Sequence record: OP978391.1
From: Escherichia phage HP3.2
Length of the DNA stretch: 64,000 nucleotides
Reading direction: 5' to 3' (one strand)
Part shown: positions 2,941-41,462 of the stretch, piece by piece
Layout: each line of letters opens with the position of its first letter
Position numbering within the stretch: position 1 is the first letter of the stretch
The notes under the pieces: model-generated
Database searches by the model: none
Told to the model about the DNA's origin: nothing
Seen by the model: the letters and a program-made list of their open reading frames with translations, nothing else
Position numbers and translations under genes: made by a program

Positions 2941-3407
2941 TAGTAAAGGTCCTCAGAGTAAAGTTCTTTTTCACTACCACCACGTTCAATACGCACTTGT
3001 CCAGCGTAAGTTGCAATAATCATTGCTTCTTCACGTGTCCAGTAATTGCTATACTGGTCAATAAATCCTTGGTCTTCACCACAAACATGGTCTGATACAA
3101 GTTTATCACTTACCTGGTCAAGAACTTCAGCCATATCTTTAGAATAATGACGAGCACCAGGAATAACCAGAGTCCCACCATCTTTTAACTTAAAGCGGTT
3201 GGCTGCACACACAATTCGACGTTGATATTTTTCATTATTGTTCCAATGAGCTACTTGCCAACAGATTTCAGGAACCTCTTCTAAAACATCCTCTTCCGTA
3301 TATTCGGTGTAGTCGCCATAGGCCTGTAATTTAGCTGCTAGACTTTCTGGAGTTTCACGTAATAAAGCTAGGTCTAATAATTCAAGACGCTCTTTGAAGG
3401 TTTTCAT
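2940..3407 (-). CDS. Hypothetical protein, 155 aa
   Basis: Track ORF, co-oriented, tightly packed. Confidence 0.6.
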
Positions 3408-3559
3408 TTGGTTTCCTCAACACTTTTAATTTTTATAGCTTGTTTAGAACTTTCAAAGCATTGACAATATACTCTTACCGCATCAAACTGGTTGGCCGCT
3501 TTAAGATGGACTACACCTTCGCCGTTATAAAATTCTACGACAATTTTAAATGTTTTCAT
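3404..3559 (-). CDS. Small ORF, about 51 aa
   Basis: [20 protein letters not shown]...; ATGA overlaps at both ends with flanking genes. Confidence 0.35.
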
Positions 3560-3885
3560 TTAAACCATCCTTTAATACGTTGCCATAAAGTTTTCTGTTG
3601 AGCTTTGTTAACACCAATTGAACGAATAACTGGTTGAGATTCCTGGAATTCTTTATAATCAGCAAGGTAAATTTCGTAAGCTGCATCCGTAAATGAACTT
3701 ATCGCTGCCATAAAATTATTGCGAATACCTACTGGAGCATCTTTACTTTCACGAATAATCATGTATTTACCAGTCTTAATCTTTACAATAGTTCCAAGAT
3801 AAGCTCCATGGTACCAAATATCCCAACCCTCTTGAGTAGGTTCTGCACAACGACGAAGTTCATTAACAATTTCTAACTTGTTCAT
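3556..3885 (-). CDS. Hypothetical protein, 109 aa
   Basis: Track ORF immediately downstream of motA. Confidence 0.6.
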   Translation of the reverse strand: MNKLEIVNELRRCAEPTQEGWDIWYHGAYLGTIVKIKTGKYMIIRESKDAPVGIRNNFMAAISSFTDAAYEIYLADYKEFQESQPVIRSIGVNKAQQKTLWQRIKGWFK

Positions 3886-3895
3886 TATTTATTCC

Positions 3896-4531
3896 TCACA
3901 GTTCAGATGCTACAGTGATTACAGCTTCAATGTTTTCTGCCGAGCGTTTAATGTCAAGATACACATTACCGTTTTTAGCGATTTTACATGACATTCCGAT
4001 GTCAGTAAATTTCTGAATATGATGTTCCATCATTTTGTATCCAAAAATTCGCATATTTCCATTGTTGTTAATTTCAAAATTACGAATTCCGTGAGTGCGT
4101 TTTTCTAAAATAGCGAGATAGTTACTGCGGTAAGTTTCAACCTTTTTAAGAACAAATCCATTTTCATCTAAAAGTTTTAACATGAAGTCTTTATCTTCTT
4201 CCATATCAGAAGTAATCTCACGAGCTTTACGAGTTGCTCGTTTTTTCAGCAGTTCCGGAGCGTTTTCCTGTGCGTATAAAGTTGCTGCATTTGAAATAAT
4301 ATCCTGAGCTTCACCAGTAATGATTAATCCATCACCAGATTTCTCCACCAGGCCTTTTTTAATCAATACCCCAATATTACTATTAACTACTGCATTACCT
4401 AAATCTGGATGCACCTCACGAACTTCTGCGGCTGTAATGAAATCTTTCTTAGCAATGGTAATTAAAATCGCAGCAGTTTTTTCATTCAGAACATCGTTAG
4501 AAGCTTTGATGATGTAAGTTACTTTAGACAT
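3896..4531 (-). CDS. motA: MotA middle-transcription activator
   Basis: 211 aa MSKVTYIIKASNDVLNEKTAAIL..., recognised as MotA. Confidence 0.93.
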   Translation of the reverse strand: MSKVTYIIKASNDVLNEKTAAILITIAKKDFITAAEVREVHPDLGNAVVNSNIGVLIKKGLVEKSGDGLIITGEAQDIISNAATLYAQENAPELLKKRATRKAREITSDMEEDKDFMLKLLDENGFVLKKVETYRSNYLAILEKRTHGIRNFEINNNGNMRIFGYKMMEHHIQKFTDIGMSCKIAKNGNVYLDIKRSAENIEAVITVASEL

Positions 4532-4568
4532 TTTAATCTCCGTTTCAGTTCATTTATTTGATAGGTCT

Positions 4569-4597
4569 ATAGTATCATGTTTAAAGCAGAAGTAAAC
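4569..4597 (-). promoter_or_regulatory. Early sigma70-like promoter upstream of motA
   Basis: Minus-strand GTTTAC, 17-bp spacer, TACTAT; A/T-rich upstream region. Confidence 0.55.
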
Positions 4598-4636
4598 ACT
4601 TTTTTGCACTCTTTTTCAAGAGCTCTAATAAAGTAC

Positions 4637-4864
4637 TTACTTAATGTTCAGATTACGAACTTCGATTTCGTCTTCATGGGCAAAATCAAACTGTTTGAAT
4701 TCTGTGTCACCTTTAAATTTAAAAATCATTGTGAAGAAAGTCAGAACACCAGGTTTTTCTTCACGAACTCCACAGATATCATATTCAATACCATCTACAA
4801 CCAGTTTGTTAGCAGTCAGAGCATTTTTAGCTTTAACGATTTCGTTTTCGATTTTAAATTTCAT
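4637..4864 (-). CDS. Hypothetical protein, 75 aa (motA.1 position)
   Basis: Track ORF downstream of an early promoter; overlapping + strand ORFs judged spurious. Confidence 0.55.
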   Translation of the reverse strand: MKFKIENEIVKAKNALTANKLVVDGIEYDICGVREEKPGVLTFFTMIFKFKGDTEFKQFDFAHEDEIEVRNLNIK

Positions 4865-4914
4865 TTTTTGTATCTCCGGGTTGTTTGTTTCAGTTCATTT
4901 ATTTGATAGTTGTA

Positions 4915-4943
4915 TAGTACCACAGTATGCTTTGGTTGTAAAC
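4915..4943 (-). promoter_or_regulatory. Early sigma70-like promoter
   Basis: GTTTAC, 18-bp spacer, TACTAT; part of a repeated promoter/5'UTR cassette. Confidence 0.55.
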
Positions 4944-4974
4944 CGTTTTGTGAAAAAATTTTTGAAATAAAAAA

Positions 4975-4994
4975 GGGAGAGCCTCGGCTCTCCC
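4975..4994 (-). terminator. Intrinsic terminator hairpin (GGGAGAGC-CTCG-GCTCTCCC) with U run on the minus strand
   Basis: 8-bp stem, 4-nt loop, followed on the minus strand by TTTTTTATTT. Confidence 0.55.
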
Positions 4995-5000
4995 TAAAAT

Positions 5001-5150
5001 TACTGCATGACTGTGATAACTGTCATGATAACACGTTGAATTCCGAACGCAAGAAGACCTCCTGCTACGGCAGGAACAACACCTAAACCCGCCAGTAAAA
5101 TGCCACCAGATACTAATGCAGCGCTTGTGATACCAATGAATGGACTCATT
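5001..5150 (-). CDS. Small hydrophobic ORF, about 49 aa
   Basis: MSPFIGITSAALVSGGILLAGLGVV...; ATG overlaps gene 52 stop. Confidence 0.4.
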
Positions 5151-6474
5151 TGATTTCCTCTAAATCTTTGGTGTATTCTGTAACTACATCAGTAGTTTTC
5201 CAATATTCGTTTTCTTCTTTTTTGGCTTTAGCTTCTTCAGCAAGTTTCTTTGCTTCGTCGGAAGTCATATGAAAAATGTTCATTCCAACTAGTTTATCAA
5301 CATAAGAAGAATACATATCAATTTTAGAAAGTTCTTCGGTCAGTTCTTTGCGAGTTTTACCTTGTACAACAATTTCACCTGAAATTACTTTCTTAATGAA
5401 ATGTGCCTTGGCAAAAGCTAAACGAAATGCTGATTCAGTTTCTTTGATTTTGTTATCAATTCGTTTTTGGACATAAGTTTTACGAACTTCAACGAAGTCT
5501 TTGATTAAATCAACTACGTTATCGTAAACTTGCAGCTTTCCTTTCTCATTAATGACTGTAATATTCTGAGAACGACGCTCAATCAGTCCGAAGTCTTTCA
5601 TAATTTTTGCATGGCGTTCTTCTTCATTATCGCTCAAAGAGTATTCTTTTCGGAATTTAACTTTGAAGCCAAAGCCATGCTCACCACAAGCATCATCCCA
5701 TGTAATGAAGCCTTTATCTTCAAGTGGGTCTAAGATTTTACTCACGTAAGTTTCACGATCATACTTATATGGAATCTCAGTGATATGCATTTGAGTTCGT
5801 GAAGTAAACTTATATGTTCCACGAATTTCATATTGCCCATCAATTTCAACGACTTCACCACGAAATTCTGGGAATTCTACCTTCGGTTTAGTTACTTTCT
5901 TTCCTTGAAGAGCTTGCAGTACAGCTTTCTTGACAGAAGAAACACTATGAGGAAGAATGTAAGTTGCATAACCAGTTGCAATACCGGAAACGCCATTAAG
6001 AAGAACAGTAGGAATAACAGGCAAATAGAAAGCAGGCGGAATGTGTTCTTTATCTTGATGTACCGGAGCATATTCAGTATCTTTATATACGTTATAGAAA
6101 TTTTTACTTACACGAGCAAAAATATAACGACTTGCTGCTGCCTTTTGGACAGTACGAGAACCGAAGTTTCCTTGACCGTCTAACAGAGGAAAGTTATTAT
6201 TCCAAGTGTTAGCCATCAAAGCACCTGCGTCTTGCGCAGAGTTTTCACCATGATGATATCCAAGGTCCGCTACACCGCCTGCGATAGAAGCGAGTTTGTG
6301 AAACTTATCTTTATTTCCTCGTGCCAAATCAAGAGCTCGAGCAATAACAAATCGTTGAACTGGCTTAAATCCGTCAATCATATTTGGAATGGCACGATTT
6401 TCAACCGTGTACATAGCATAAGCCAATGCTTCATTATCAATGATACTTTTTAAATCACGATTATTCAGTTGCAT
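5146..6474 (-). CDS. 52: DNA topoisomerase II medium subunit gp52
   Basis: 442 aa GyrA-like protein, length and sequence match T4 gp52. Confidence 0.93.
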   Translation of the reverse strand: MQLNNRDLKSIIDNEALAYAMYTVENRAIPNMIDGFKPVQRFVIARALDLARGNKDKFHKLASIAGGVADLGYHHGENSAQDAGALMANTWNNNFPLLDGQGNFGSRTVQKAAASRYIFARVSKNFYNVYKDTEYAPVHQDKEHIPPAFYLPVIPTVLLNGVSGIATGYATYILPHSVSSVKKAVLQALQGKKVTKPKVEFPEFRGEVVEIDGQYEIRGTYKFTSRTQMHITEIPYKYDRETYVSKILDPLEDKGFITWDDACGEHGFGFKVKFRKEYSLSDNEEERHAKIMKDFGLIERRSQNITVINEKGKLQVYDNVVDLIKDFVEVRKTYVQKRIDNKIKETESAFRLAFAKAHFIKKVISGEIVVQGKTRKELTEELSKIDMYSSYVDKLVGMNIFHMTSDEAKKLAEEAKAKKEENEYWKTTDVVTEYTKDLEEIK

Positions 6475-6478
6475 AAAT

Positions 6479-6619
6479 TTACCATACTAGTGAATGTAGT
6501 GCCATAATAACATCAGAAATGAAAAGCACGACTTGAATTAATCCGAACATTATTCCGTAATATAATGCTATCAATAAAATAGCAAGGGCTAATGAATAGC
6601 CCAAGATTTTCTTAATCAT
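6479..6619 (-). CDS. Small hydrophobic ORF, about 46 aa
   Basis: MIKKILGYSLALAILLIALYYG...; overlaps preceding ORF stop. Confidence 0.4.
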   Translation of the reverse strand: MIKKILGYSLALAILLIALYYGIMFGLIQVVLFISDVIMALHSLVW

Positions 6620-6770
6620 TAGTAGATAACAACACAAATGTTAAATATGCACACATACCCTGGGCTAAAGCTTGTGAAAACACACTGCTAGCATCGATAC
6701 AGATAGTTAAAACACATGCTACTATCCAACAAATAAATGAAATAACTCCTAATAATTTTGCGATATTCAT
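6612..6770 (-). CDS. Small membrane protein, about 52 aa (ac-like position)
   Basis: MNIAKLLGVISFICWIVACVLT...; sits between 52 and stp where T4 has ac. Confidence 0.4.
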   Translation of the reverse strand: MNIAKLLGVISFICWIVACVLTICIDASSVFSQALAQGMCAYLTFVLLSTND

Positions 6771-6777
6771 ATTTTCC

Positions 6778-6858
6778 TCACTGGCGTCCGAAGACGCCTT
6801 TAGTTTTAAGATTATTACGATAGAACTGCATCACGTGTTCGTTGTGGAAATTACTCAT
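6778..6858 (-). CDS. stp: Stp peptide, 26 aa
   Basis: Translation [26 protein letters not shown] matches my recollection of T4 Stp; start overlaps ndd stop. Confidence 0.75.
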
Positions 6859-7316
6859 TAATATGCCTGCAAAACGAATTTAAAATTATCAGCCAACATA
6901 CGGTTCATTTCTTCAAGTGTTTGATACTCAGAATGATGATTACGAGTAAACGCTAAAGCTAACTGTCCTTTTCCAAATCCCGTCGTCAGAGGTTTCATCT
7001 TAGAAGCAGGCAGATAAAATACTGTGTATACCATATTGTTATTTGCAATAGTACGTGCAAGCTGAGACCGACGTTGACGAATATGACTTAGAACTGCACT
7101 GAATCCTTGCTTAGAACGCTGATTACCTACATAAAATCGTGCAGACACACATGGATTACTAAATGGACGACCATTTAATTTACTTACTAAAAAATAAAAT
7201 CCAGGTTTAGATAAAATATCTTTATGCGGAGTTCCCAAAAACCACTCACCACCCTTGATTGTACCAATAACAGTAGCGCCTGCATTATTCAGATCAGTAA
7301 CAGTCATGTATTTCAT
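6858..7316 (-). CDS. ndd: Ndd nucleoid disruption protein
   Basis: [26 protein letters not shown]... recognised; internal ATG with GAGGAAATTAAT RBS preferred over track start at 7370. Confidence 0.88.
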
Positions 7317-26423: not shown

Positions 26424-27763
<1,340 letters not shown>

Positions 27764-27788
27764 TATATCATCCTCAGCAATTTATTTT

Positions 27789-27818
27789 ATAATACCATAA
27801 CAAGCTGAGAAAGTAAAC
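27789..27818 (-). promoter_or_regulatory. Early sigma70-like promoter upstream of the 186-aa ORF
   Basis: GTTTAC, 18-bp spacer, TATTAT. Confidence 0.5.
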
Positions 27819-27862
27819 AAATTTATGAAATTTGTGATAAATATTAATTTAAAGGAGGACAT

Positions 27863-28063
27863 ATGGCACAAAAATTAATGGCACTTGTTAATGCCATAAA
27901 AGGTAATAAAAAACGTATAGCTTTTACTATTTCTGCTATGGTAGGAATTTTACTCTGGAATTTTGTTTTATCACCAATTGCTATTGCTCATGGTGTTAAT
28001 ATTCCAGTAATTACTCTTGATACATTCGTAGATCTAGCATTTGCTTTAGTTGGGTTAATTTAA
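27863..28063 (+). CDS. Small membrane protein, 66 aa, on the plus strand
   Basis: Strong AAGGAGG RBS; two hydrophobic segments; convergent with gene 61, stops overlap. Confidence 0.5.
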   Translation: MAQKLMALVNAIKGNKKRIAFTISAMVGILLWNFVLSPIAIAHGVNIPVITLDTFVDLAFALVGLI

Positions 28064-29088
28064 ATCTTGGCATATTTAGATAACCGCATTTTAGCCATCA
28101 ACCCTTGGGCAATATTATTTTTCATATATTCCATAATTTGTTCAGGGGTTGCACCTTCCTTTCTAATCATATCATTAACATCTTTTGATTTCCAGGGAGA
28201 TTTATCCCAAAACATAACTCTTTCTCCTGCATCAACTAATTTAGTCATTCGTTTGATAGTGTCAGGGTGACGAGGTTCATTATCTAAAACCCACACTCGT
28301 CTATCTTTAAATGGAACAACTTCTAGGTCTAATTGACCACCCGTAATAGCTATACCATTTTCAATAAAAAGTGAATCTATAGGTCCTTCTAGAACATATA
28401 CATCACCATCTTTAACTCGTTCGACTCCATATATTTTTGTTGCCTCAGGATAAGCTTTAATGGTGATATATTTTTGAGGAGCATCTTTCTTTAATGCACG
28501 TCCTTGAAAAGACTCAGCTTTTCCATTAGCATTATAAATTGGAATAACAAGACGAGGCTCAGAAATTTCCTTTTTGTATGTTCCTGGTGCTATGCTATTA
28601 ACTAATTTAGGCCATTCGGTTGTAAACCAAAGATATTTCCATTTATCATTTGGAATACAACGAGCTTTTACATATTTTATAATTGGATGGTCTTCCGCCA
28701 GTTTATCTAATCTAACGCATGACGGAAGAGATTTAATTATTTTCTTCTCAGGTTGTTTAGGAAGTTCTTTAGGTTTTTCTACTGGACGACTTTTACCTTT
28801 TTCTTTTCTTATTTCAAAGATATACTCACGATATAAATCAGGTTCAAACTCCTTTAAATATATTCCGATTGGTGCATGATAGTTACAGTTATAACAATGA
28901 ATATTTCCTTCATTATTATCACCATAATACCATCCACGGGCTTTATTTTGGTCGGTTTTTGAATCTCCACACACTGGGCATCTAAACCGTAATTTAAAAG
29001 TTGAACTATTATTTACTTGTGTGAATTTAGGTAAATGAGCTAATGCACGATACGCAAACTCATTATCAATCCAAGGTATTGATGACAT
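28060..29088 (-). CDS. 61: DNA primase gp61
   Basis: 342 aa; zinc ribbon CPVC...CYNC and Toprim region; matches T4 gp61. Confidence 0.93.
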   Translation of the reverse strand: MSSIPWIDNEFAYRALAHLPKFTQVNNSSTFKLRFRCPVCGDSKTDQNKARGWYYGDNNEGNIHCYNCNYHAPIGIYLKEFEPDLYREYIFEIRKEKGKSRPVEKPKELPKQPEKKIIKSLPSCVRLDKLAEDHPIIKYVKARCIPNDKWKYLWFTTEWPKLVNSIAPGTYKKEISEPRLVIPIYNANGKAESFQGRALKKDAPQKYITIKAYPEATKIYGVERVKDGDVYVLEGPIDSLFIENGIAITGGQLDLEVVPFKDRRVWVLDNEPRHPDTIKRMTKLVDAGERVMFWDKSPWKSKDVNDMIRKEGATPEQIMEYMKNNIAQGLMAKMRLSKYAKI

Positions 29089-29090
29089 TT

Positions 29091-29255
29091 TTACTCTTCT
29101 TTTTCTTTAGATTCCTCTTTTTTCTTTTTAGGAATCTGTTCAGGACCTTTATTTACTACAGCGCCTGATGTTGTTCCAGTAGAGATATTTTCAGGATTAC
29201 CACCTGAATCTCCAGCGACCATATCTTCTTTAATAAATTCTTTAAATGTTTTCAT
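29091..29255 (-). CDS. Small ORF, about 54 aa (61.1 position)
   Basis: MKTFKEFIKEDMVAGDSGGNPEN...; lies between gene 61 and the 208-aa ORF. Confidence 0.45.
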   Translation of the reverse strand: MKTFKEFIKEDMVAGDSGGNPENISTGTTSGAVVNKGPEQIPKKKKEESKEKEE

Positions 29256-29256
29256 A

Positions 29257-29883
29257 TTAACCTCTATTCATAAAAGCATTAAAAATTTGGTCATCAATAG
29301 AAACATTTACTTTAGACTGTTTTTCGGATGGTAATTCATATCCACATATTACAATTTTGTGATCAATATCAAAATACACAGAAGCAATATGATTAATGCT
29401 GCTTTCAGTAAAGTCTAAATCAACATCAATATCTTTTTGACCAAAGCCCAAAGGATAAATAATGCGAGTAATTCGATTATCTTTAACAAAGATTCCACCG
29501 ACATACTCTGTACTGCGTTTAAAGTCTACACGCCGACGAAATGAAAAATATTCAGGCTCTTTATGAGCTCGGCTCATAGGGCACAACGAATAACTAGAAT
29601 AAGAGATGTCAAATCCTACGCCTTCAATATGAACTAAATTGTCATGATTAAACCAATTATAATCATATGCCAAGTCCATTAGATTGTCATATGTGAAAGG
29701 CACCGGATTAACATCATTGGTCACAAGCATATAATTAGCAACTGCTATAATTTCATTATTTTTAACGAATACAAACCGTGATTGATGCGAATGGCCTGGA
29801 CCTGCGTTTTCACGATTAATGATATAACACTGGGCACCTTTATATTTGTACGTGTCTTTACACTTGTGCATTTGATAAAGCAT
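29257..29883 (-). CDS. Hypothetical protein, 208 aa (61.2 position)
   Basis: Track ORF; position corresponds to T4 61.2. Confidence 0.6.
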   Translation of the reverse strand: MLYQMHKCKDTYKYKGAQCYIINRENAGPGHSHQSRFVFVKNNEIIAVANYMLVTNDVNPVPFTYDNLMDLAYDYNWFNHDNLVHIEGVGFDISYSSYSLCPMSRAHKEPEYFSFRRRVDFKRSTEYVGGIFVKDNRITRIIYPLGFGQKDIDVDLDFTESSINHIASVYFDIDHKIVICGYELPSEKQSKVNVSIDDQIFNAFMNRG

Positions 29884-30176
29884 TATTCACCTACCACTTC
29901 AGCGATGATATTTTTATTATTAAAGTTTTTATCGCAATACAGAACATAATTATACTGCATTACACCACCAGACTTAAGCTGTTTTTGCACTTCAGCTTTC
30001 ATTTCAGGACGATCACGTTCAACGATATTCATAATATCTGCTTCAATTTGAGTTTCAACTTCAGTCTGATCCGCAGTCATAGACCATTCGCACAAATCTT
30101 TGTCATAACCCGCCATAGCAGGCTGAGCAGCGCAAGAAGATAAAGCAAAAATTGCAGCAAAGATAAATTTTTTCAT
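29883..30176 (-). CDS. sp: Spackle periplasmic superinfection-exclusion protein
   Basis: 97 aa with signal peptide MKKFIFAAIFALSSCAAQPAMA; matches T4 Sp. Confidence 0.82.
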   Translation of the reverse strand: MKKFIFAAIFALSSCAAQPAMAGYDKDLCEWSMTADQTEVETQIEADIMNIVERDRPEMKAEVQKQLKSGGVMQYNYVLYCDKNFNNKNIIAEVVGE

Positions 30177-30204
30177 GATAATCTCCTCAGTAGTTTATGT
30201 TTAT

Positions 30205-30234
30205 ATAGTATCTCAATTTCCAATAAAAGTAAAC
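30205..30234 (-). promoter_or_regulatory. Early sigma70-like promoter upstream of sp
   Basis: GTTTAC, 18-bp spacer, TACTAT. Confidence 0.5.
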
Positions 30235-30236
30235 AG

Positions 30237-30536
30237 TTATTTTAAAACTTTTGCGTAATCACATGTTACAAACTGTTTCTCTAACTTGGCGATTTTACGA
30301 AAGTATCTTTTGCATTGACGAATCTGTCGCTTTGTAGGGCGCACAGCAAACTTAATAAATTCCACTCGACCAAATGGAGGGCTTTCTTCTGCCGGAATAT
30401 CTAATACTAATTCCCACGTATCTGCAATAAGTGCTTTGAATTGAGTATTTTTCCTGACATTATACGGAGTAGGTTTAAATAAAACGATATGCATATTATC
30501 CTCGGCAATCCACTTCACATACCTTCTTGTCATCAA
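30237..30536 (-). CDS. Hypothetical protein, 99 aa (61.4 position)
   Basis: Track ORF. Confidence 0.55.
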   Translation of the reverse strand: MMTRRYVKWIAEDNMHIVLFKPTPYNVRKNTQFKALIADTWELVLDIPAEESPPFGRVEFIKFAVRPTKRQIRQCKRYFRKIAKLEKQFVTCDYAKVLK

Positions 30537-30678
30537 TGAAAGCTTTAACTAGTGCTTTATTAACTTCAGCATATTGAGTAGTAGCCCATTGAACGTCATC
30601 TTTCATCATTGTGATCTCTTTAGTAAACATGCTTTCATTCTTAAACCACCCCATAAAAACTACCTTTACCAATTCCAT
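30496..30678 (-). CDS. dmd: Dmd antitoxin (inhibitor of RnlA/LsoA)
   Basis: 60 aa MELVKVVFMGWFKNESMFTKEITMMKDD..., recognised as Dmd. Confidence 0.82.
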   Translation of the reverse strand: MELVKVVFMGWFKNESMFTKEITMMKDDVQWATTQYAEVNKALVKAFIDDKKVCEVDCRG

Positions 30679-30707
30679 AACAATCTCCTCATTTAACCAA
30701 CAAGACT

Positions 30708-30737
30708 ACTATACCATAGTCTTGTCAGCTTGTAAAC
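30708..30737 (-). promoter_or_regulatory. Early sigma70-like promoter upstream of dmd
   Basis: GTTTAC with TATAGT-like -10. Confidence 0.45.
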
Positions 30738-32164
30738 TAAAATTTTAATTCATTTGCCAAAGCATCTAACTGAGCTCGAGTCGATTCGTTTCTTTGATAG
30801 CGATTCTGCTCAGCTTGTATCTGTTGTGAACCTGCTACCTCACTCACTTCAGTTGGAGTAGAATCTTGTTCAATTTCTACCCATTTCTGATTTCCTTTTT
30901 GAACACCCATCAAAAACTTATTCCATTTATTCTTATCACCATATCGTGATTTGATTTGCTTAATAAGTTGTTGTTCAGCAGCTGCTAACTCCTCGGTTTC
31001 AATGACCGCAAGCATAAAATCAGCTGTTGCTGGAAGACCGGCAGATTCTGCGATATCACTCATGTTAACATCAGAAGAATCCCAAGCTTGTTTACCAACC
31101 TGTGCTGCAGTCCAAAGAACAGTTTCGGTTTCAACAGCCAGAGCACGCAATTCCTCTGCAATAGCTTTAACAGTTGTGTAACTATTTTCTGAATAAACTC
31201 GGATGCGACAAGATTTACAAATACCTAGATAGTCGACAATAATGATTGTTGGAACAAAATTCTTCTTGAGCTTCAATTCGTTTAAAAGTGATCGAAATGT
31301 ATTAGCGTCTGCTCCACCAGTAGGATACTGTTTAACGATTAAACGACCGAGAGTAGATTTCTCGCGCCATTTTTCCATTTTTCCTTTATACTCAGCGTAA
31401 GAAATATGCCCGTCATCAATGTCATCAAGAGAAACATCAAGCATATTAGCATCAATACGTTTAGCACAGACTTCTTCTGCCATTTCCATGGAGATATAAA
31501 GAACGTTATGACCAAGCTGCAAATAATCTGCTGCTAATGAACAAAGTCCTAATGACTTACCAACGTTAACACCAGCCATTAAAACGTTCAGTGTTCCAGT
31601 TTCAGCTCCGCCTTTAGTAATTTTGTTTAGAATTCTGAGTTTAAATGGAACCTTACGAGCTTTATTCATATAAGATAGCCAACGCGCTTCATAGTCATCC
31701 ATCCAATCATGACCAACGTAGCTATCAAATGAAATTGATAATGCTTGGCGCATGATGTCAGGAATAGCACCTACATCTGGCATTTTCTTATTTCGTTTTT
31801 CCGGAGGAAGCTCAGCATTAGTTTGAATTTCGATTATTTTAGACGTAGCATTAAACATCGCCCTTTGCTGAACATATTTTTCTGTTTCTTTTACTAACCA
31901 GCTGTGGTCTTCCGGAGAATCAGCCAGTTTTGAAATAAGTGTTTTTACACCAGAATATTCTGTTTCAGTAAATGAACTATTTTCTAATGCAACATTTAAC
32001 GCATTAATAGATGGAACGCTATGATACTCATTGACATGAGATTTAATTAATTTGAATGTATTTTTAGCTGGACCACTTTCAAAATATTCTGAATCCATAT
32101 ATGGCCAAACTTTTGAAAAATAAGCTTGATCAAATATGAGATGAGAAAGAATAATTTCTACCAC
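30737..32164 (-). CDS. 41: Replicative DNA helicase gp41
   Basis: 475 aa DnaB-family; Walker A GVNVGKS; matches T4 gp41. Confidence 0.93.
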   Translation of the reverse strand: MVEIILSHLIFDQAYFSKVWPYMDSEYFESGPAKNTFKLIKSHVNEYHSVPSINALNVALENSSFTETEYSGVKTLISKLADSPEDHSWLVKETEKYVQQRAMFNATSKIIEIQTNAELPPEKRNKKMPDVGAIPDIMRQALSISFDSYVGHDWMDDYEARWLSYMNKARKVPFKLRILNKITKGGAETGTLNVLMAGVNVGKSLGLCSLAADYLQLGHNVLYISMEMAEEVCAKRIDANMLDVSLDDIDDGHISYAEYKGKMEKWREKSTLGRLIVKQYPTGGADANTFRSLLNELKLKKNFVPTIIIVDYLGICKSCRIRVYSENSYTTVKAIAEELRALAVETETVLWTAAQVGKQAWDSSDVNMSDIAESAGLPATADFMLAVIETEELAAAEQQLIKQIKSRYGDKNKWNKFLMGVQKGNQKWVEIEQDSTPTEVSEVAGSQQIQAEQNRYQRNESTRAQLDALANELKF

Positions 32165-32173
32165 ACTTACTCC

Positions 32174-32536
32174 TTAAAAGAATTTAAACTTTTTCTTTGA
32201 CCTTTTATTAAATGCATCTTGTAGTTGCATTGTAATACATTTTTCTACATGAGGAGCTAACTCAGCTTTTCTTTCTTGGTCAAGAACAGCAAAGTCCATT
32301 ACGACTTTTCCATCAACCCAATCTAATTTTGTCACATACACAATGTGTGTAGAACCATCTTCTAGTTTAATGACAATCTCCTGGATAACATTTTCCATAG
32401 CGGATTTAATTATCTTAAGAGACTCATTAAAAAGACGTTCTTTTCTTTCTTCTTCCCCCTCCGAAGAGGGGGATTCATCGATAATTTCTAGATCTAAGTC
32501 TAAATCATCTTTATTCATTAAATTCTTCCATATCAC
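32174..32536 (-). CDS. 40: gp40-like protein (position of T4 gene 40)
   Basis: 120 aa acidic N-terminus; lies between uvsX and 41. Confidence 0.55.
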   Translation of the reverse strand: MIWKNLMNKDDLDLDLEIIDESPSSEGEEERKERLFNESLKIIKSAMENVIQEIVIKLEDGSTHIVYVTKLDWVDGKVVMDFAVLDQERKAELAPHVEKCITMQLQDAFNKRSKKKFKFF

Positions 32537-33769: not shown

Positions 33770-34615
33770 TTAATCAACTGCTATTGGATGAATAGCATTA
33801 AACTTATGAAATGCTTCTGATTTTTCTTTACGCGAAACACACATGCGAAGAACCTTTAATGGCTCGTCTTCTTCACCCAACGATTTTCGTTTTTCAATAT
33901 TCGATGTTTTCCAACGAGCTTGCTCTGGAAACTCTCTATTGATTTGCTCAAGCGCTCTATTATGTTTAGAATTACTACGAATTGAACTACACCCACCGGG
34001 AGCGTGTGATTTTCCAGATACAACTAGATATTTGAACAAGGCCAAATGCGGATAACCTTGATTAATTAAATTGAGAAATGCATACATATCTTCGCATAAA
34101 TCAATTTTTCCATACCCAATTTGTTCTGTCGTAAGTTTTCCGAGGTCATACCATGTATTCGTGAATCCATATGAGTTTTCACGATAATTGCCCCAAGATG
34201 AAGTAATTTTAAAAATTGGTAGACGAGCATGACCGTGATAATACCCGCAATCCATGGCATCTTCAACGTATTGAATTAATTCATAGAACTGTTCACGAGT
34301 TAATTGATTAATTTTATCTACACGCCGTTTATCGTCTCTCTTTCGTATTGAACTCATACGAATAGTAGTATCATCAATCATCCAGATTCGTTGACCTGCA
34401 TACATATCAGTAATTGCTTTACGAGTACCGGCAATTCCATTAACATCATCAGGAATAGTTACAATTTTAGCTCTAGACCCATAAGCATCATAATAAGCTT
34501 TTTCTTCGTGTTCACGCACCACAATATGGGGTTCATAATCAGTCGGAAACATATTAAGGGCAGAAACTGCCCCGACACGTTGATAACTTGGAATTACGAA
34601 TTGAATCATTTCCAC
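33770..34615 (-). CDS. Glucosyltransferase in the beta-gt slot; likely beta-glucosyl-HMC alpha-glucosyltransferase of T2/T6 type
   Basis: 281 aa between uvsX and gene 42; shorter than and unlike T4 beta-gt; assignment by position and lineage context. Confidence 0.5.
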   Translation of the reverse strand: MEMIQFVIPSYQRVGAVSALNMFPTDYEPHIVVREHEEKAYYDAYGSRAKIVTIPDDVNGIAGTRKAITDMYAGQRIWMIDDTTIRMSSIRKRDDKRRVDKINQLTREQFYELIQYVEDAMDCGYYHGHARLPIFKITSSWGNYRENSYGFTNTWYDLGKLTTEQIGYGKIDLCEDMYAFLNLINQGYPHLALFKYLVVSGKSHAPGGCSSIRSNSKHNRALEQINREFPEQARWKTSNIEKRKSLGEEDEPLKVLRMCVSRKEKSEAFHKFNAIHPIAVD

Positions 34616-36453: not shown

Positions 36454-36539
36454 AGTTTTGTGAAAATTTTTTAGGGAATTCTAAATGTCCAGAATCATCT
36501 GTTTTTCATAAGTATAGATTTATATTACTTGTATGAAAA

Positions 36540-36557
36540 AGGGACCCGGAGGTCCCT
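36540..36557 (-). terminator. Intrinsic terminator hairpin GGGACC-CGGA-GGTCCC downstream of gene 43
   Basis: Stem-loop followed by TTTTTC on the minus strand. Confidence 0.5.
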
Positions 36558-36569
36558 AGATTTATTCTA

Positions 36570-39266
36570 TCAGCCAAACAGGAAGTCTAACGAAGCTTTT
36601 TCTTCATAGTCCATACCAGCCGATTCACACATGCCCGCAAGCGGTTTAACAAACGATTTTTGGAACAAAGTTGAGTAGTCAATCCAAGACAGTACGTCAG
36701 AACGAATTTCTTTTGGAAGTTCTGTACCCGACGGCCAAGCAATGCATTTGTCACCAAATGGATTTCCTTCACGCAATGGAAGAACCATTACTTTATTTCC
36801 ATCCAAAATTGGAGCTACACCTAAACCGCTAACAGCTCGACGATAAGTTAGCACACCACGAATATGGAACGGACATTTAAATCCTGGCCAACCTTTATCA
36901 TCATATTTCGCTATATCGTTCGCAGTTTTTACTTCAGCAATAACTTTATAGTCGAGTTGACGATATTCTTTCTCGAAGTTCTTGTAATATTCTTGGACAG
37001 ACTCTTCACCTTCCTGAAGAATACGACGAATACTTTCTTCGAGAGCTTCTTGTACTGCTTTTGGTGTTGAACTCTGCTGAGTTTCCATACCCATGATTTT
37101 TAGATGCGGTTCAGCAAATCGTTTATCTTCCATATCATAAACGTTCAGAGCATAACGCTTTTTCGCTTTCCAAAATCCACCAATACCCTTTGAACCAAGT
37201 GGAGGGCAAGAAATAGCTTCACGGTCCATATGCATCAGATGCTCGCGGTTATTCATATAATCACATAACTCACGATATGCAACATCAATCATAGGTTCCA
37301 TCTTTTTCTTACCGAACTGATTCATAAATTCAACCAAATCGTTCTGCTCTTTGAATCGGTCAAGACCAACTTTTTCAATAACTTTATCTACACAAACATA
37401 TACCGAATCAGTATCACCTGCTGCAATGAAATCTTCGCCATTAGTTCCGCATACTTTATTCAGATATTCATTAATTTTACGAGCAATCCACTGAATACCA
37501 ACTTGGCCAAAAATTGTGATAGCAGTAGCATTTCGCAAATCATAGTAACGGAAATGAATATTACCAAGAGCACCATAAAGACTGTTAATGAGAATTTTAC
37601 GGTTCAGCTGATTTGTGTTAGCAAGTGTAGCAGCTTTTTCACATTCTTCAATCAAACTATTGAGAACAGATTCAGTATAATTCGACAGTTCATTTAAGAA
37701 ATCATCACTGAACTTAACATATCGTTCAACTTCTGGTTTAGTTGAACAAGACCCTGCGCCTTTCATAATAATCTTTTTAATAGCTTCGGCATTCATTTCT
37801 TCAGCGAACATTTTCTTTTTCCAGTCTTTACGCTGGAAAAATACTTTAGCGATTTCCTTTGGAATGATACCTTCTTGATGCTTATCATACATCCATCCAT
37901 TCGGAGAACAAGAATATTCTTCACTTGGCTTAGGAGCTGTTCCTGCGATATATTCATGAATTGGATGAACTTTAAATTGTCCACGAATAGTCTCAGGACT
38001 AATGTTAACCTGACGAATAATGCTCGGATACAGAGACGTCAAGTCAAAACTCATAATATATCGACGAGCAATTGGTTTAGGTTCAAACACAAATGCACCC
38101 GGAAAACTCTGTTTAACATGCGAACCTTGTTGAGGAATAACCTTATGTTCACCTTTCAATGAGTTAAAAATAATAGCATCCCAAGTTTTAATAGGACTCA
38201 TTACACCAGAAAAAGGCATTTTAGCATAATAAGACATACTTAAAACTAGATCGATAAACCCGCGAATTTTATCAATTGCTTGAACTGATTCTACGTCAAT
38301 GATGTTATAACTAATGTATCGTTGATGATTAGTCTCACGAAGTTTATTAATAGGACCATCATACGGTAATTTACCTTTTTTGGTTTCATGTTGAGCAACT
38401 GATTCCAAAGAGAATGACGGCAAATTAGTAAAAGCGAATTTCTTGTACAAATCTAAATAATCAAGAATAGATACGCCATCAATAGAATAAATTTCTTTGC
38501 TACCGTACATATTTTGAATTAGTTTAGATTTTACTCGACCGATTGGAGAGAAGCGTTTCATACTACGTTCACCGAGAACCATTTTAACACGATTCATGAT
38601 ATACGGAACGTCAAATCCCTCAATATTCCAACCAGTAAAAATAGCAGGTCGTTTCTGTTCCCAGAGATTGATATATTCCATGAGCATATCACGCTCATTA
38701 TCGAATGGCATATAAATTACTCGGTCAAGAATTTCTTGAGGAACTTCATCACCACCTTCACAGTCAAGCTTAGCAGCTAACTTTGCATCCCATTTTGATA
38801 CTGAACCGTACATTGAATTCAAAAGGTCGAAAACATAAAAACGATCATCAATTGAATCATAATGAGTAATAGCATCAATTTCATATTCTGCTTTCATTGG
38901 GTCAGGAAATTTATCACCAGTAACCTCAATGTCACAGTTAGCTACACGAACAAATTTTCGGTCATAAACAATTTCTGAACCATATGTATCACTGATATAA
39001 GCGAGTTTAAAATCGTTCATACCGAGAGCTTCGAGACCGATGTCTTCCATTCGTTTCATCCAATCTCGAGCATCTTTCATTGATGGAAATTTTTGAGGAG
39101 CGCAGTTTTTACCATAGATGTCTTTGTATTTTGACTCTTCCTTACAATGCCTAAACATAGTCGGAAGATATTCTACTTCACGAGTACGTTCCTTTCCGTT
39201 TTCATCAATATAACGTTCAACAATGTTATTTCCGACTGTTTCAATAGAGATATAAAATTCTTTCAT
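36570..39266 (-). CDS. 43: DNA polymerase gp43 (family B)
   Basis: 898 aa; motif YGDTDS present (GDTDSVYV); matches T4 gp43. Confidence 0.96.
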   Translation of the reverse strand: MKEFYISIETVGNNIVERYIDENGKERTREVEYLPTMFRHCKEESKYKDIYGKNCAPQKFPSMKDARDWMKRMEDIGLEALGMNDFKLAYISDTYGSEIVYDRKFVRVANCDIEVTGDKFPDPMKAEYEIDAITHYDSIDDRFYVFDLLNSMYGSVSKWDAKLAAKLDCEGGDEVPQEILDRVIYMPFDNERDMLMEYINLWEQKRPAIFTGWNIEGFDVPYIMNRVKMVLGERSMKRFSPIGRVKSKLIQNMYGSKEIYSIDGVSILDYLDLYKKFAFTNLPSFSLESVAQHETKKGKLPYDGPINKLRETNHQRYISYNIIDVESVQAIDKIRGFIDLVLSMSYYAKMPFSGVMSPIKTWDAIIFNSLKGEHKVIPQQGSHVKQSFPGAFVFEPKPIARRYIMSFDLTSLYPSIIRQVNISPETIRGQFKVHPIHEYIAGTAPKPSEEYSCSPNGWMYDKHQEGIIPKEIAKVFFQRKDWKKKMFAEEMNAEAIKKIIMKGAGSCSTKPEVERYVKFSDDFLNELSNYTESVLNSLIEECEKAATLANTNQLNRKILINSLYGALGNIHFRYYDLRNATAITIFGQVGIQWIARKINEYLNKVCGTNGEDFIAAGDTDSVYVCVDKVIEKVGLDRFKEQNDLVEFMNQFGKKKMEPMIDVAYRELCDYMNNREHLMHMDREAISCPPLGSKGIGGFWKAKKRYALNVYDMEDKRFAEPHLKIMGMETQQSSTPKAVQEALEESIRRILQEGEESVQEYYKNFEKEYRQLDYKVIAEVKTANDIAKYDDKGWPGFKCPFHIRGVLTYRRAVSGLGVAPILDGNKVMVLPLREGNPFGDKCIAWPSGTELPKEIRSDVLSWIDYSTLFQKSFVKPLAGMCESAGMDYEEKASLDFLFG

Positions 39267-39937: not shown

Positions 39938-40501
39938 TTACCATTCCAATGCTAGTTTTTTGAGTTGTTTCTGTTCTTTTACGTTCTTAGTCACTTCTTT
40001 CAAAAAATCATCCGTGACTAAACCTTTTAGTTCTTTTAATACTAAAGATAGTTTTCCATTTTTAGTAAGAATTGATTTATAGTTAATTGCATCATTTGTA
40101 TTAACTTGATACCGCTTAGCAAGTAACTTAATAATCAATACTTCGGTGGAATCTTCAACCAGTTTTGCCCATTTACCATATCTTTTACCCCGAGGAACAG
40201 CAGCCATCAGATAATTAAAATGAGCTTCATCACTTAATCCAGAACCGATTAAATTCATAGCATATACAGCTGGCATGCACTCTGGAAATTGTGATAATGC
40301 ATTCTCAACCATGTATTTTGAATAATCTTTTTGAGCAATAGAGCATTTAGTTTTATTATTAATAGCTCCAATTATTTCAAAAAACTCATTTTCAGCTTTT
40401 TCTTTAAAAGAATCAGCAGCGGATTGGACAGCTGTCCAATCTTTTGAATACCAAGCAACTTGATGCTCGTTTAATTGAATATCATCTTCAAATAAGCTCA
40501 T
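39938..40501 (-). CDS. 62: Clamp loader small subunit gp62
   Basis: Start MSLFEDD gives 187 aa; position between regA and 44. Confidence 0.82.
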
Positions 40502-40502
40502 A

Positions 40503-41462
40503 TCACTTCCACTGCATTTCACATGCTAACTGAATGAAAAGATAAGCTAAATGCAATTCAGTATTAGCTGCAATACCATGATACTGATTATTTTCGCCGA
40601 CAATTTCGTACATACGAATAATACTCTGCGGAGTTACACGTGAATAGATTTCTTCGGCAAGTTTACCTACGAACCACGAATAATCAGCTGCATATTTTGG
40701 TGCTAAAGCTCTGAGTTGTTTAACATCTTTATTTTTGAGAGACTCAAGAACATCATCAATAGCACCACGATCGTTAGTAACCAGTGATAAAATACCAGCA
40801 TCCAAAACACCTTTAGATGAATAACTATCGAGCTCGCCAATAGTTTTACGAAAATCAGGAAAATTCTTTTTAACCAAAGCTGCTACAACTTTCATATCAG
40901 CTATAGCAATTCCTTCATGCTTACAGATTTCAGTCAATCGACGAATCATCTGCTTCATCATTTCAATTTTATCTTCATCGGTCGGTTGACCGAACGTAAT
41001 AACTCGGCAGCGTGACTGAAGTGGTTTAATAATACCATCAATATTGTTAGCAGTAATAATAATACTACAGTTTGAACTATAAGCTTCCATAAAGGAACGA
41101 AGATGTCGCTGAGACTCTGCTAATCCTGAGCGGTCAAATTCATCAATAACGATTACTTTTTGACGACCATCAAATGAAGCGGCGCTGGCAAAATTAGTCA
41201 AAGGACCGCGAACGAAATCAATTTTACAATCTGATCCATTCACAAACATCATATCAGCATTTACATCATGACACAATGCTTTTGCTACAGTTGTTTTACC
41301 TGTTCCTGGAGAAGGAGAATGAAGAATAATATGTGGAATCTTACCTTTACTTGTAATAGATTTAAAGGTTTCTTTATCAAAGGCGGGAAGAATACATTCA
41401 TCGATAGTAGATGGACGATATTTCTGTTCAAGAATGTGTTCTTTTTCATTTACGGTAATCAT
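40503..41462 (-). CDS. 44: Clamp loader ATPase gp44
   Basis: Walker [10 protein letters not shown]; AAA+ fold; start MITVNE with GAGGA RBS. Confidence 0.93.

Follow-up and report, generated by a model that had tools for sequence, protein, structure and literature searches.

Five small genes separate the replicative helicase gene (41) from the DNA primase gene (61) in Escherichia phage HP3.2 (record OP978391.1; HP3 below), and the question they raise is whether residence beside known antitoxin and exclusion genes foretells the function of those that have none assigned. They occupy positions 29091-30678 of the 64,000-nucleotide (nt) stretch analysed here, referred to as the window. A preliminary description, made from the sequence, had recognised Spackle and Dmd among the products and had proposed the other three open reading frames (ORFs), of 208, 99 and about 54 amino acids (aa), as counter-defence candidates on account of their location. 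For two of them the proposal agrees with published functions, the 208-aa product being AdfA and the 99-aa ORF, properly 85 aa, encoding TifA. It is unsupported for the 54-aa product, gp61.1, which is encoded by a backbone gene and whose homology points to the capsid protein gp23, close to the structural kind of role that the description had itself set against counter-defence. Gp61.1 is a modest new lead; the rest of the finding, including the concept of an island, was already known.

Gp61.1 has been annotated as hypothetical since the genome was sequenced. We found no published function for it in the literature, and it has no match in Pfam (also at E values up to 10), NCBIfam or PADLOC. Its sequence falls into a segment resembling a capsid-targeting sequence (CTS; residues 1-10, MKTFKEFIKE), a gp23-homologous core (residues 11-38) and a Lys/Glu-rich tail (residues 39-54). 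Residues 2-38 align without gaps to residues 57-93 of T4 gp23 with 17 identities over 37 positions (blastp), and in several databases relatives of 61.1 bear the label 'major capsid (domain-containing) protein'. A hidden Markov model built from 55 diverse members of the 61.1 family, with capsid proteins excluded, was run with filters disabled against the complete HP3 genome translated in six frames and gave two significant matches, gp61.1 itself and gp23 (52.6 bits, E=5.5e-15), the next match having E=2.2. An independent profile searched against all PDB sequences retrieved T4 gp23 chains only (E=1.6e-10, residues 63-100). A T-even 61.1 profile searched against 1.84 billion representative proteins returned 51 family members and no capsid protein at E<=1e-3, the link to gp23 being significant only in the genome-scale and PDB-scale searches with the broader profile. 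Judged from these alignments, the core of gp61.1 is homologous to gp23 residues ~62-101, a segment spanning the gp21 cleavage site and the N-arm; gp61.1 appears to be a free-standing paralogue of the part of gp23 that carries the gp21 maturation site and the N-arm and N-fist.

The likeness to gp23 runs without gaps over some 40 residues (E-x-x-[IV]-x-G-D-x-G-x-N-x-x-N-I-A-x-G-x-T-S-G-A-V-x-x-x-G-P) and takes in P3 and P1 of the cleavage site and basic residues that follow the GP, whereas gp61.1 lacks the HK97-fold body, has a poly-Lys tail and keeps family signatures of its own (DMVAGDSGG and NKGPE, compared with AEIGGDHGY and QIGPA in gp23). The Glu conserved in the family (E10 in gp61.1) falls opposite Glu65 of gp23, which is P1 of the gp21 maturation cut, and I8-K9-E10, which aligns with the L63-T64-E65 cut site of gp23, fits the published gp21 motif L/I-X-E. 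The cleavage-site Glu is kept in 115 of 120 distinct family cores, and L, I, M, V or F occupies P3 in 111 of these 115. In gp23, residues 66-105 form a flexible N-terminal region that lies inside the shell of the unexpanded prohead, probably touching the scaffolding core, and in which the head-length mutations A66D, A94V and G97S map; once the head has expanded, the same residues form the N-arm and N-fist, make inter-capsomer contacts and contribute part of the Soc site. Because identity between 61.1 and gp23 is 37-53% for every phage pairing, the paralogy is, on sequence grounds, ancient. A test of whether the 61.1 core tracks its cognate gp23 N-arm had little variation to compare, the gp23 segment being nearly invariant (95-97% identical among T4, RB69 and an Acinetobacter phage).

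The N-terminus of gp61.1 was compared with the CTS of the T4 internal proteins (IPs) IPI, IPII and IPIII (Mullaney and Black, 1996). Foreign proteins can be brought into T4 heads by just the first ten residues of IPIII, of which residues 4 and 7 govern targeting and residues 8 and 10 processing. All four positions are conserved in gp61.1, and the four also align with F59, F62, L63 and E65 of gp23. Residues 1-7 are those of IPI (MKTFKEF), residues 1-10 match the MKTYQEFIAE of IPII and IPIII at 8 of 10 positions, and the decapeptide ends, as in the IPs, in an L/I-x-E gp21 site. The N-terminal pattern MK[TS][FY]x[ED]F is found in 4 of 2,258 candidate ORFs of the HP3 genome, gp61.1 included, the other three being two PHROG-annotated internal head or virion proteins and one CTS-bearing unknown; over 132 kb of T4/HP3 sequence, IPI, IPII and IPIII were the only other bearers of the CTS-like pattern. 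The IPs, basic proteins of 8-20 kDa, show little conservation and come from hypervariable loci, whereas gp61.1 (5.9 kDa) has a conserved core and a fixed place beside the primase gene and, unlike the IPs, has never been reported in virions. The other CTS-bearing ORFs of HP3 are located at genome positions 36472-36729, 36806-37039 and 40438-41001 (plus strand, outside the window; 85, 77 and 187 aa); they are not T4 IPI, IPII or IPIII and exemplify a polymorphic set of injected internal proteins.

Across the family the core is presented in different settings. Short forms make up 27 of the 120 cores and often start with a CTS-like MKxFxEF..E, and in 85 long forms a ~100-aa N-terminal domain stands in place of the CTS, as it does in the majority of relatives from other genera. 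The fold of this domain is predicted with confidence (predicted local distance difference test score, pLDDT, >90 over residues 1-70) and no structural relative of it could be recognised. For the gp23-like core by itself the prediction is disorder (core pLDDT ~50), as would be expected of an arm that orders on binding. Some relatives carry, beyond the 61.1 core and its KKKK tail, a second CTS-like motif (M..FKQFVE.LEA) and a further domain of ~100 aa, and structural relatives of the long form lie within proteins of 387-913 aa (BFVD entries A0A411BBR2, A0A1B1IT15, A0A6J7WVK5 and A0A7S5R3P1). The second-motif and large relatives may be fusions with other head proteins.

In the reading we favour, the IP-type targeting decapeptide that precedes the gp23-like segment of T-even gp61.1 would recruit the protein to the scaffolding core of the prohead, gp21 would cut it after Ile8-Lys9-Glu10, and the resulting 44-aa, 4.6-kDa peptide would either modulate head assembly or ride in the head, to be retained or ejected like the IPs. 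We put this forward with reserve, as having slightly less than an even chance of being correct. Somewhat more tentatively still, the gp61.1 family as a whole may be an unrecognised component of T4-type head morphogenesis, delivered by an IP-type peptide in the T-even phages or by the ~100-aa N-terminal domain in other Straboviridae. Several points weigh against the mechanism proposed for gp61.1. Gp61.1 was not detected in a T4 time-course proteome, where one good tryptic peptide would be expected, and it is not named in the supplement of a T4 virion mass-spectrometry study. The late promoter TATAAATA is absent from 28900-30900, and the long forms have another domain where the CTS would be. The short, MK-rich N-terminus could in part be compositional in an AT-rich genome, and the L/I-x-E site could be retained simply by common descent with gp23. 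In T4, 61.1 RNA belongs to the early class, which it shares with ipI-III and gene 40, whose proteins accumulate late. If the proposal is correct, the cut peptide would compete with or complement the N-terminal region of gp23 (the seat of the head-length mutations and of Soc binding) or would remain in the head and be ejected, and the family would connect, in evolution, the propeptide junction of gp23 with the CTS of the internal proteins. Few phage assembly pathways have been studied as intensively as that of the T4 head, and for this pathway gp61.1 now offers a cheap, testable hypothesis.

The surroundings of 61.1 in HP3 are those of T4. Over positions 29000-30800 the window shares 100% identity with HP3 records and 97.6% with T4, and matches occur in 630 phage records, so the five ORFs between genes 41 and 61 are real conserved genes and not chance ORFs. 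All five that had been placed in 29091-30678 by the preliminary description are present, and all are on the minus strand in the T4 order 41, dmd (61.5), 61.4, sp (61.3), 61.2, 61.1, 61. The features are:

30737..32164, minus strand: gene 41, replicative helicase, a conserved flank (474/475 residues identical to T4 gp41)

30708..30737, minus strand: T4-type early promoter of the dmd-tifA unit (GTTTACA, 17-nt spacer, TATAGT, TG extension)

30496..30678, minus strand: dmd (61.5), 60 aa (Pfam PF17587, E=1.6e-46; 60/60 identical to T4 Dmd)

30237..30494, minus strand: tifA (61.4), 85 aa (Pfam PF23945, DUF7279, E=3e-20; 82/85 identical to T4)

30200..30234, minus strand: second T4-type early promoter-like element, upstream of sp (GTTTAC...TACTAT)

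29883..30176, minus strand: sp (61.3), Spackle, 97 aa (Pfam PF25676, E=2.8e-45; 94/97 identical to T4 Sp)

29257..29883, minus strand: adfA (61.2), 208 aa (Pfam PF23813, E=4.2e-137; 205/208 identical to T4)

29091..29255, minus strand: 61.1, 54 aa (identical to T4 gp61.1)

28060..29088, minus strand: gene 61, DNA primase, a conserved flank (340/342 residues identical to T4 gp61)

The genes are tightly packed, with 1-nt gaps between dmd and 61.4 and between 61.2 and 61.1, a 1-nt overlap of the sp stop with the 61.2 start, and a 61.1 stop codon that ends 2 nt before the gene 61 ATG. The dmd promoter scores 10/12 in a consensus scan, with TG, its GTTTAC at 30737 within the 58-bp gap before dmd and its -35 element overlapping the gene 41 stop codon; in T4 an early promoter upstream of dmd drives dmd and 61.4 (PMC9391042). 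The element before sp has GTTTAC at 30234, in the 60-bp gap preceding that gene, and TACTAT is its candidate -10, assigned by eye. In T4 the RNA and likewise the protein of dmd, 61.4, sp and 61.2 are early. A terminator scan of 28900-30900 gave no terminator, and an Rfam scan of 27000-32500 no RNA family.

Within this locus 61.1 stands apart by its distribution. Relatives occur in 1,485 phage records by tblastn, including phages of Escherichia, Klebsiella, Acinetobacter, Aeromonas and Vibrio, and 1,739 proteins are found with a profile built on the long-form relatives; AdfA, in contrast, is limited to 16 clusters. Six Straboviridae genomes were inspected for gene position, namely HP3, T4, RB69, Vibrio phage XZ1 (Schizotequatrovirus), Acinetobacter phage Mokit (Hadassahvirus) and Aeromonas phage L9-6 (Biquartavirus), and 61.1 lies immediately upstream of the primase gene in all six. 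It is the sole interval gene kept beside primase in RB69, XZ1, Mokit and L9-6, the last of which has the order 40-41-61.1-61 and lacks dmd, tifA, sp and adfA. In RB69 the 41-61 interval (3318-6899 of the stretch inspected) holds ten genes, among them imm and imm.1 next to sp and four unknown ORFs (032c, 033c, 040c and 041c), which shows the interval to be a hyperplastic slot; the long-form 61.1 of this phage is split into ORF032c and a 92-aa 61.1. 61.1 is a backbone gene of the Straboviridae, and the slot between it and gene 41, filled by the counter-defence and exclusion genes, is variable. Co-location is weak evidence for the function of 61.1, and guilt by association can mislead inside an island, as gp61.1 shows. 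A GC-rich hairpin lies between 61.1 and primase in the Vibrio, Acinetobacter and Aeromonas phages (2640-2750, 2620-2695 and 2660-2735 of the stretches inspected), followed in the Vibrio phage by a promoter-like TATAAT, whereas the T4 and HP3 genes are 2 nt apart, so that the regulatory link between 61.1 and primase differs between lineages.

The variability of the slot invites the view that co-location is meaningless throughout, the junction of 41 and 61.1 being a permissive insertion hotspot for assorted small early genes in which membership predicts nothing. The number of genes between 41 and 61.1, from none in L9-6 through four in T4 and HP3 to ten in RB69, fits such a hotspot, as do the targets of Spackle and Imm, which are other phages and not host defences, and a T4 adfA deletion that has no phenotype (PMC11257639). 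However, three of the four T4/HP3 genes inhibit toxins of toxin-antitoxin (TA) systems, far above a random draw of T4 early genes, and dmd and tifA are adjacent in T2, T4, T6 and RB69 (PMC9391042). As a complete account the hotspot is unlikely, and it complements the best explanation rather than excluding it.

A second alternative keeps gp61.1 within the counter-defence set as an effector in its own right, for example as a packaged peptide injected with the DNA, comparable to IPI*, which blocks the GmrSD restriction enzyme. The gene shares an early promoter and transcript with sp and adfA and has early-class RNA, the T4 internal proteins with the same targeting sequence have been described as a diverse set of defence proteins, and the remaining genes of the region have been proposed as antitoxin candidates (Srikant et al., 2022; PMC9391042). 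In addition, peptides derived from gp23 are known to trigger host suicide systems such as Gol-Lit. The Gol determinant presumably covers about residues 93-122 of gp23, mostly downstream of the segment homologous to 61.1, and a decoy role of gp61.1 towards Lit/Gol was set aside on this ground. What makes a counter-defence effector improbable is that 61.1 is conserved across distant genera and sits beside primase even where the island is missing, instead of being patchy or accessory, that its core is nearly invariant and not fast-evolving, and that Pfam, NCBIfam and PADLOC link it to no defence or anti-defence family.

Thirdly, the constant neighbourhood of primase could indicate an accessory of the primase-helicase primosome, in which the Lys-rich tail would bind DNA and the likeness to capsid sequence would be an ancient accident of descent. 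The strict position upstream of gene 61 in 6/6 genomes, the 2-nt spacing in T4 and HP3, which suggests translational coupling, and the conservation of the KKKK tail across the family are in keeping with it. We regard this role as very doubtful: gp61.1 resembles no replication protein, the hairpin and promoter-like sequence that part 61.1 from primase in distant phages mean that coupling is not general, position alone is uninformative where gene 40, encoding a head-vertex chaperone, also lies within the 'replication' cluster, and neither the conserved L/I-x-E site nor the CTS-like N-terminus would be explained. Finally, the possibility that 61.1 lacks a protein function, as a decaying fragment of a gene 23 duplication or as a leader ORF bringing ribosomes to a weak gene 61 start, draws on its small size, predicted disorder and absence from the T4 proteome, on a gene 61 Shine-Dalgarno inside the 61.1 coding sequence and on the split RB69 long form, but is highly improbable given amino-acid conservation in ~1,500 genomes and no fewer than 120 distinct cores (G/D/G/G/P being invariant although overall identity is 40-50%), terminator-like hairpins between 61.1 and primase in distant phages, and T4 and HP3 proteins that are identical with a single synonymous nucleotide change in the gene.

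The remaining members of the interval correspond closely to characterised T4 proteins. The recognition of Spackle and Dmd in the preliminary description is borne out by their Pfam matches and T4 identities. Dmd is an antitoxin mimic that inhibits the RnlA and LsoA toxins (PMC9391042). The '99-aa ORF' (30237-30536) results from a mechanical extension back to a TTG and would run 41 nt into dmd; the start of tifA is the ATG at 30494, preceded by a GAGGA Shine-Dalgarno, which gives 85 aa and matches the T4 annotation. Its product scores 72.3 bits against PF23945 (cut-off 24.5) and differs from T4 TifA by V69A, E82K and I83V, all in the C-terminal extension, while the central basic cluster, a described feature of TifA (PMC9391042), is intact: residues 50-72 include 9 K/R. 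The gene lies directly downstream of dmd in one early operon. In T4, gp61.4 was renamed TifA as an inhibitor of the ToxN endoribonuclease by Srikant et al. (2022), who describe escape from toxIN by amplification of dmd-tifA, a TifA-ToxN interaction, activity that needs translation and survives recoding of tifA, a ~100-fold loss of plating on chromosomal toxIN when tifA is disrupted, and inhibition of ToxN at the protein level by the homologues of T2, T4, T6 and RB69, in all of which dmd and tifA are adjacent (PMC9391042). By its near-identity to the T4 protein the HP3 61.4 product is TifA, and ToxN inhibition is predicted for it. HP3 Spackle differs from T4 Sp by T8A, A13S and K53E and has an N-terminal signal peptide visible in its sequence (MKKFIFAAIFALSSCAAQPAMA, ending AMA/GY with cleavage before GY); it would be exported to the periplasm and there block the gp5 lysozyme of superinfecting T-even phages, Spackle being described as a periplasmic inhibitor of the gp5 tail lysozyme of the superinfecting phage (PMC7677548).

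The homology search that had been suggested for the 208-aa protein identifies it as well. Residues 1-208 align to positions 1-211 of the 211-position profile PF23813, 'Anti-DarT factor A' (454.8 bits, cut-off 27), and by this match the protein is AdfA, orthologue of T4 gp61.2, sited between sp and 61.1 as in T4. The family is narrow, with 16 clusters, all at least 67% identical and all from T-even-like phages. Gene 61.2 is noted as AdfA with credit to LeRoux et al. (2022) (PMC9391042), and the facts on AdfA given here come from two later papers whose authors overlap with those of that study (PMC9391042, PMC11257639). AdfA works via an interaction with DarT1, and one residue change in the RB69 protein, R164H, turns DarT1 neutralisation on (PMC11257639). 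RB69 R164 aligns with His165 of HP3 and T4; HP3 AdfA therefore has the neutralising-type residue, and would act on the DNA ADP-ribosyltransferase DarT1 with an activity that depends on the allele at this one position. Two observations count against a simple assignment of this kind. The T4 adfA deletion has no phenotype against DarTG1, even without adfN (PMC11257639), and the natural target of AdfA is uncertain for this reason. Moreover, HP3 AdfA differs from T4 AdfA by N161S, I162S and P190S, the first two beside the DarT-specificity residue, and its S161 and S162 are unique among 15 cluster representatives, of which 14 have Asn at position 161 and all others Ile or Asn at position 162. S161 and S162 precede His165 by three to four residues in the same predicted helix (adfA codons 160-165, window 29400-29417). 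The pair could be an arms-race variant and, situated beside the specificity site, may alter the range of DarT variants that HP3 AdfA neutralises. A structure predicted from 15 sequences has a mean pLDDT of 68, and a Foldseek search of it against the PDB gave nothing at E<0.3, so that the fold offered no mechanistic insight.

Taken with its flanks, the 41-61 interval of HP3 is very probably the 'anti-TA / exclusion island' of T4. Srikant, Guegler and Laub (eLife 2022) described the T4 dmd-tifA-sp-adfA region as an 'anti-TA island', and HP3 shares its genes, their order and the promoter arrangement, the differences being allelic only (substitutions in TifA, AdfA and Sp). The idea that co-located unknowns are counter-defence candidates, advanced in the preliminary description, was thus already stated in that work (PMC9391042); it is right for AdfA and TifA and unsupported for gp61.1. 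Two early transcription units, P-dmd-tifA and P-sp-adfA-61.1(-61), would serve the island, and its four known products would each bind and neutralise one specific protein, these functions being carried over from T4 experiments through identities of 96-100%. The 'hypothetical proteins' of most deposited records should read AdfA and TifA, with tifA at 85 aa. HP3 is a therapeutic candidate against extraintestinal pathogenic Escherichia coli, and for phage therapy as for phage biology the island sets which toxin-antitoxin defences HP3 can overcome. The unannotated HP3 GenBank record KY608967.1 is flagged UNVERIFIED and carries the taxonomy line 'Rosemountvirus', although its sequence is plainly that of a Tequatrovirus; this looks like a labelling error.

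Two further ORFs near the interval, both on the minus strand, differ from T4. A 186-aa ORF (27203-27763), placed between dam and dam.1, shares 1 nt with the start of dam; it is absent from T4 and present in 163 phage records, including T2. Its similarity to type II restriction endonucleases is weak (PADLOC REase_II, E=9e-5; Pfam DpnII, E=0.0045, below the cut-off), which makes it a candidate GATC-type nuclease-like protein beside the phage Dam methylase. Downstream of uvsX, a 281-aa ORF (33770-34615) matches the TET-associated glycosyltransferase family (PF20691, E=7e-10); in T4 the corresponding place is taken by segA and beta-glucosyltransferase, so the hydroxymethylcytosine of HP3 may be decorated in another way than that of T4.

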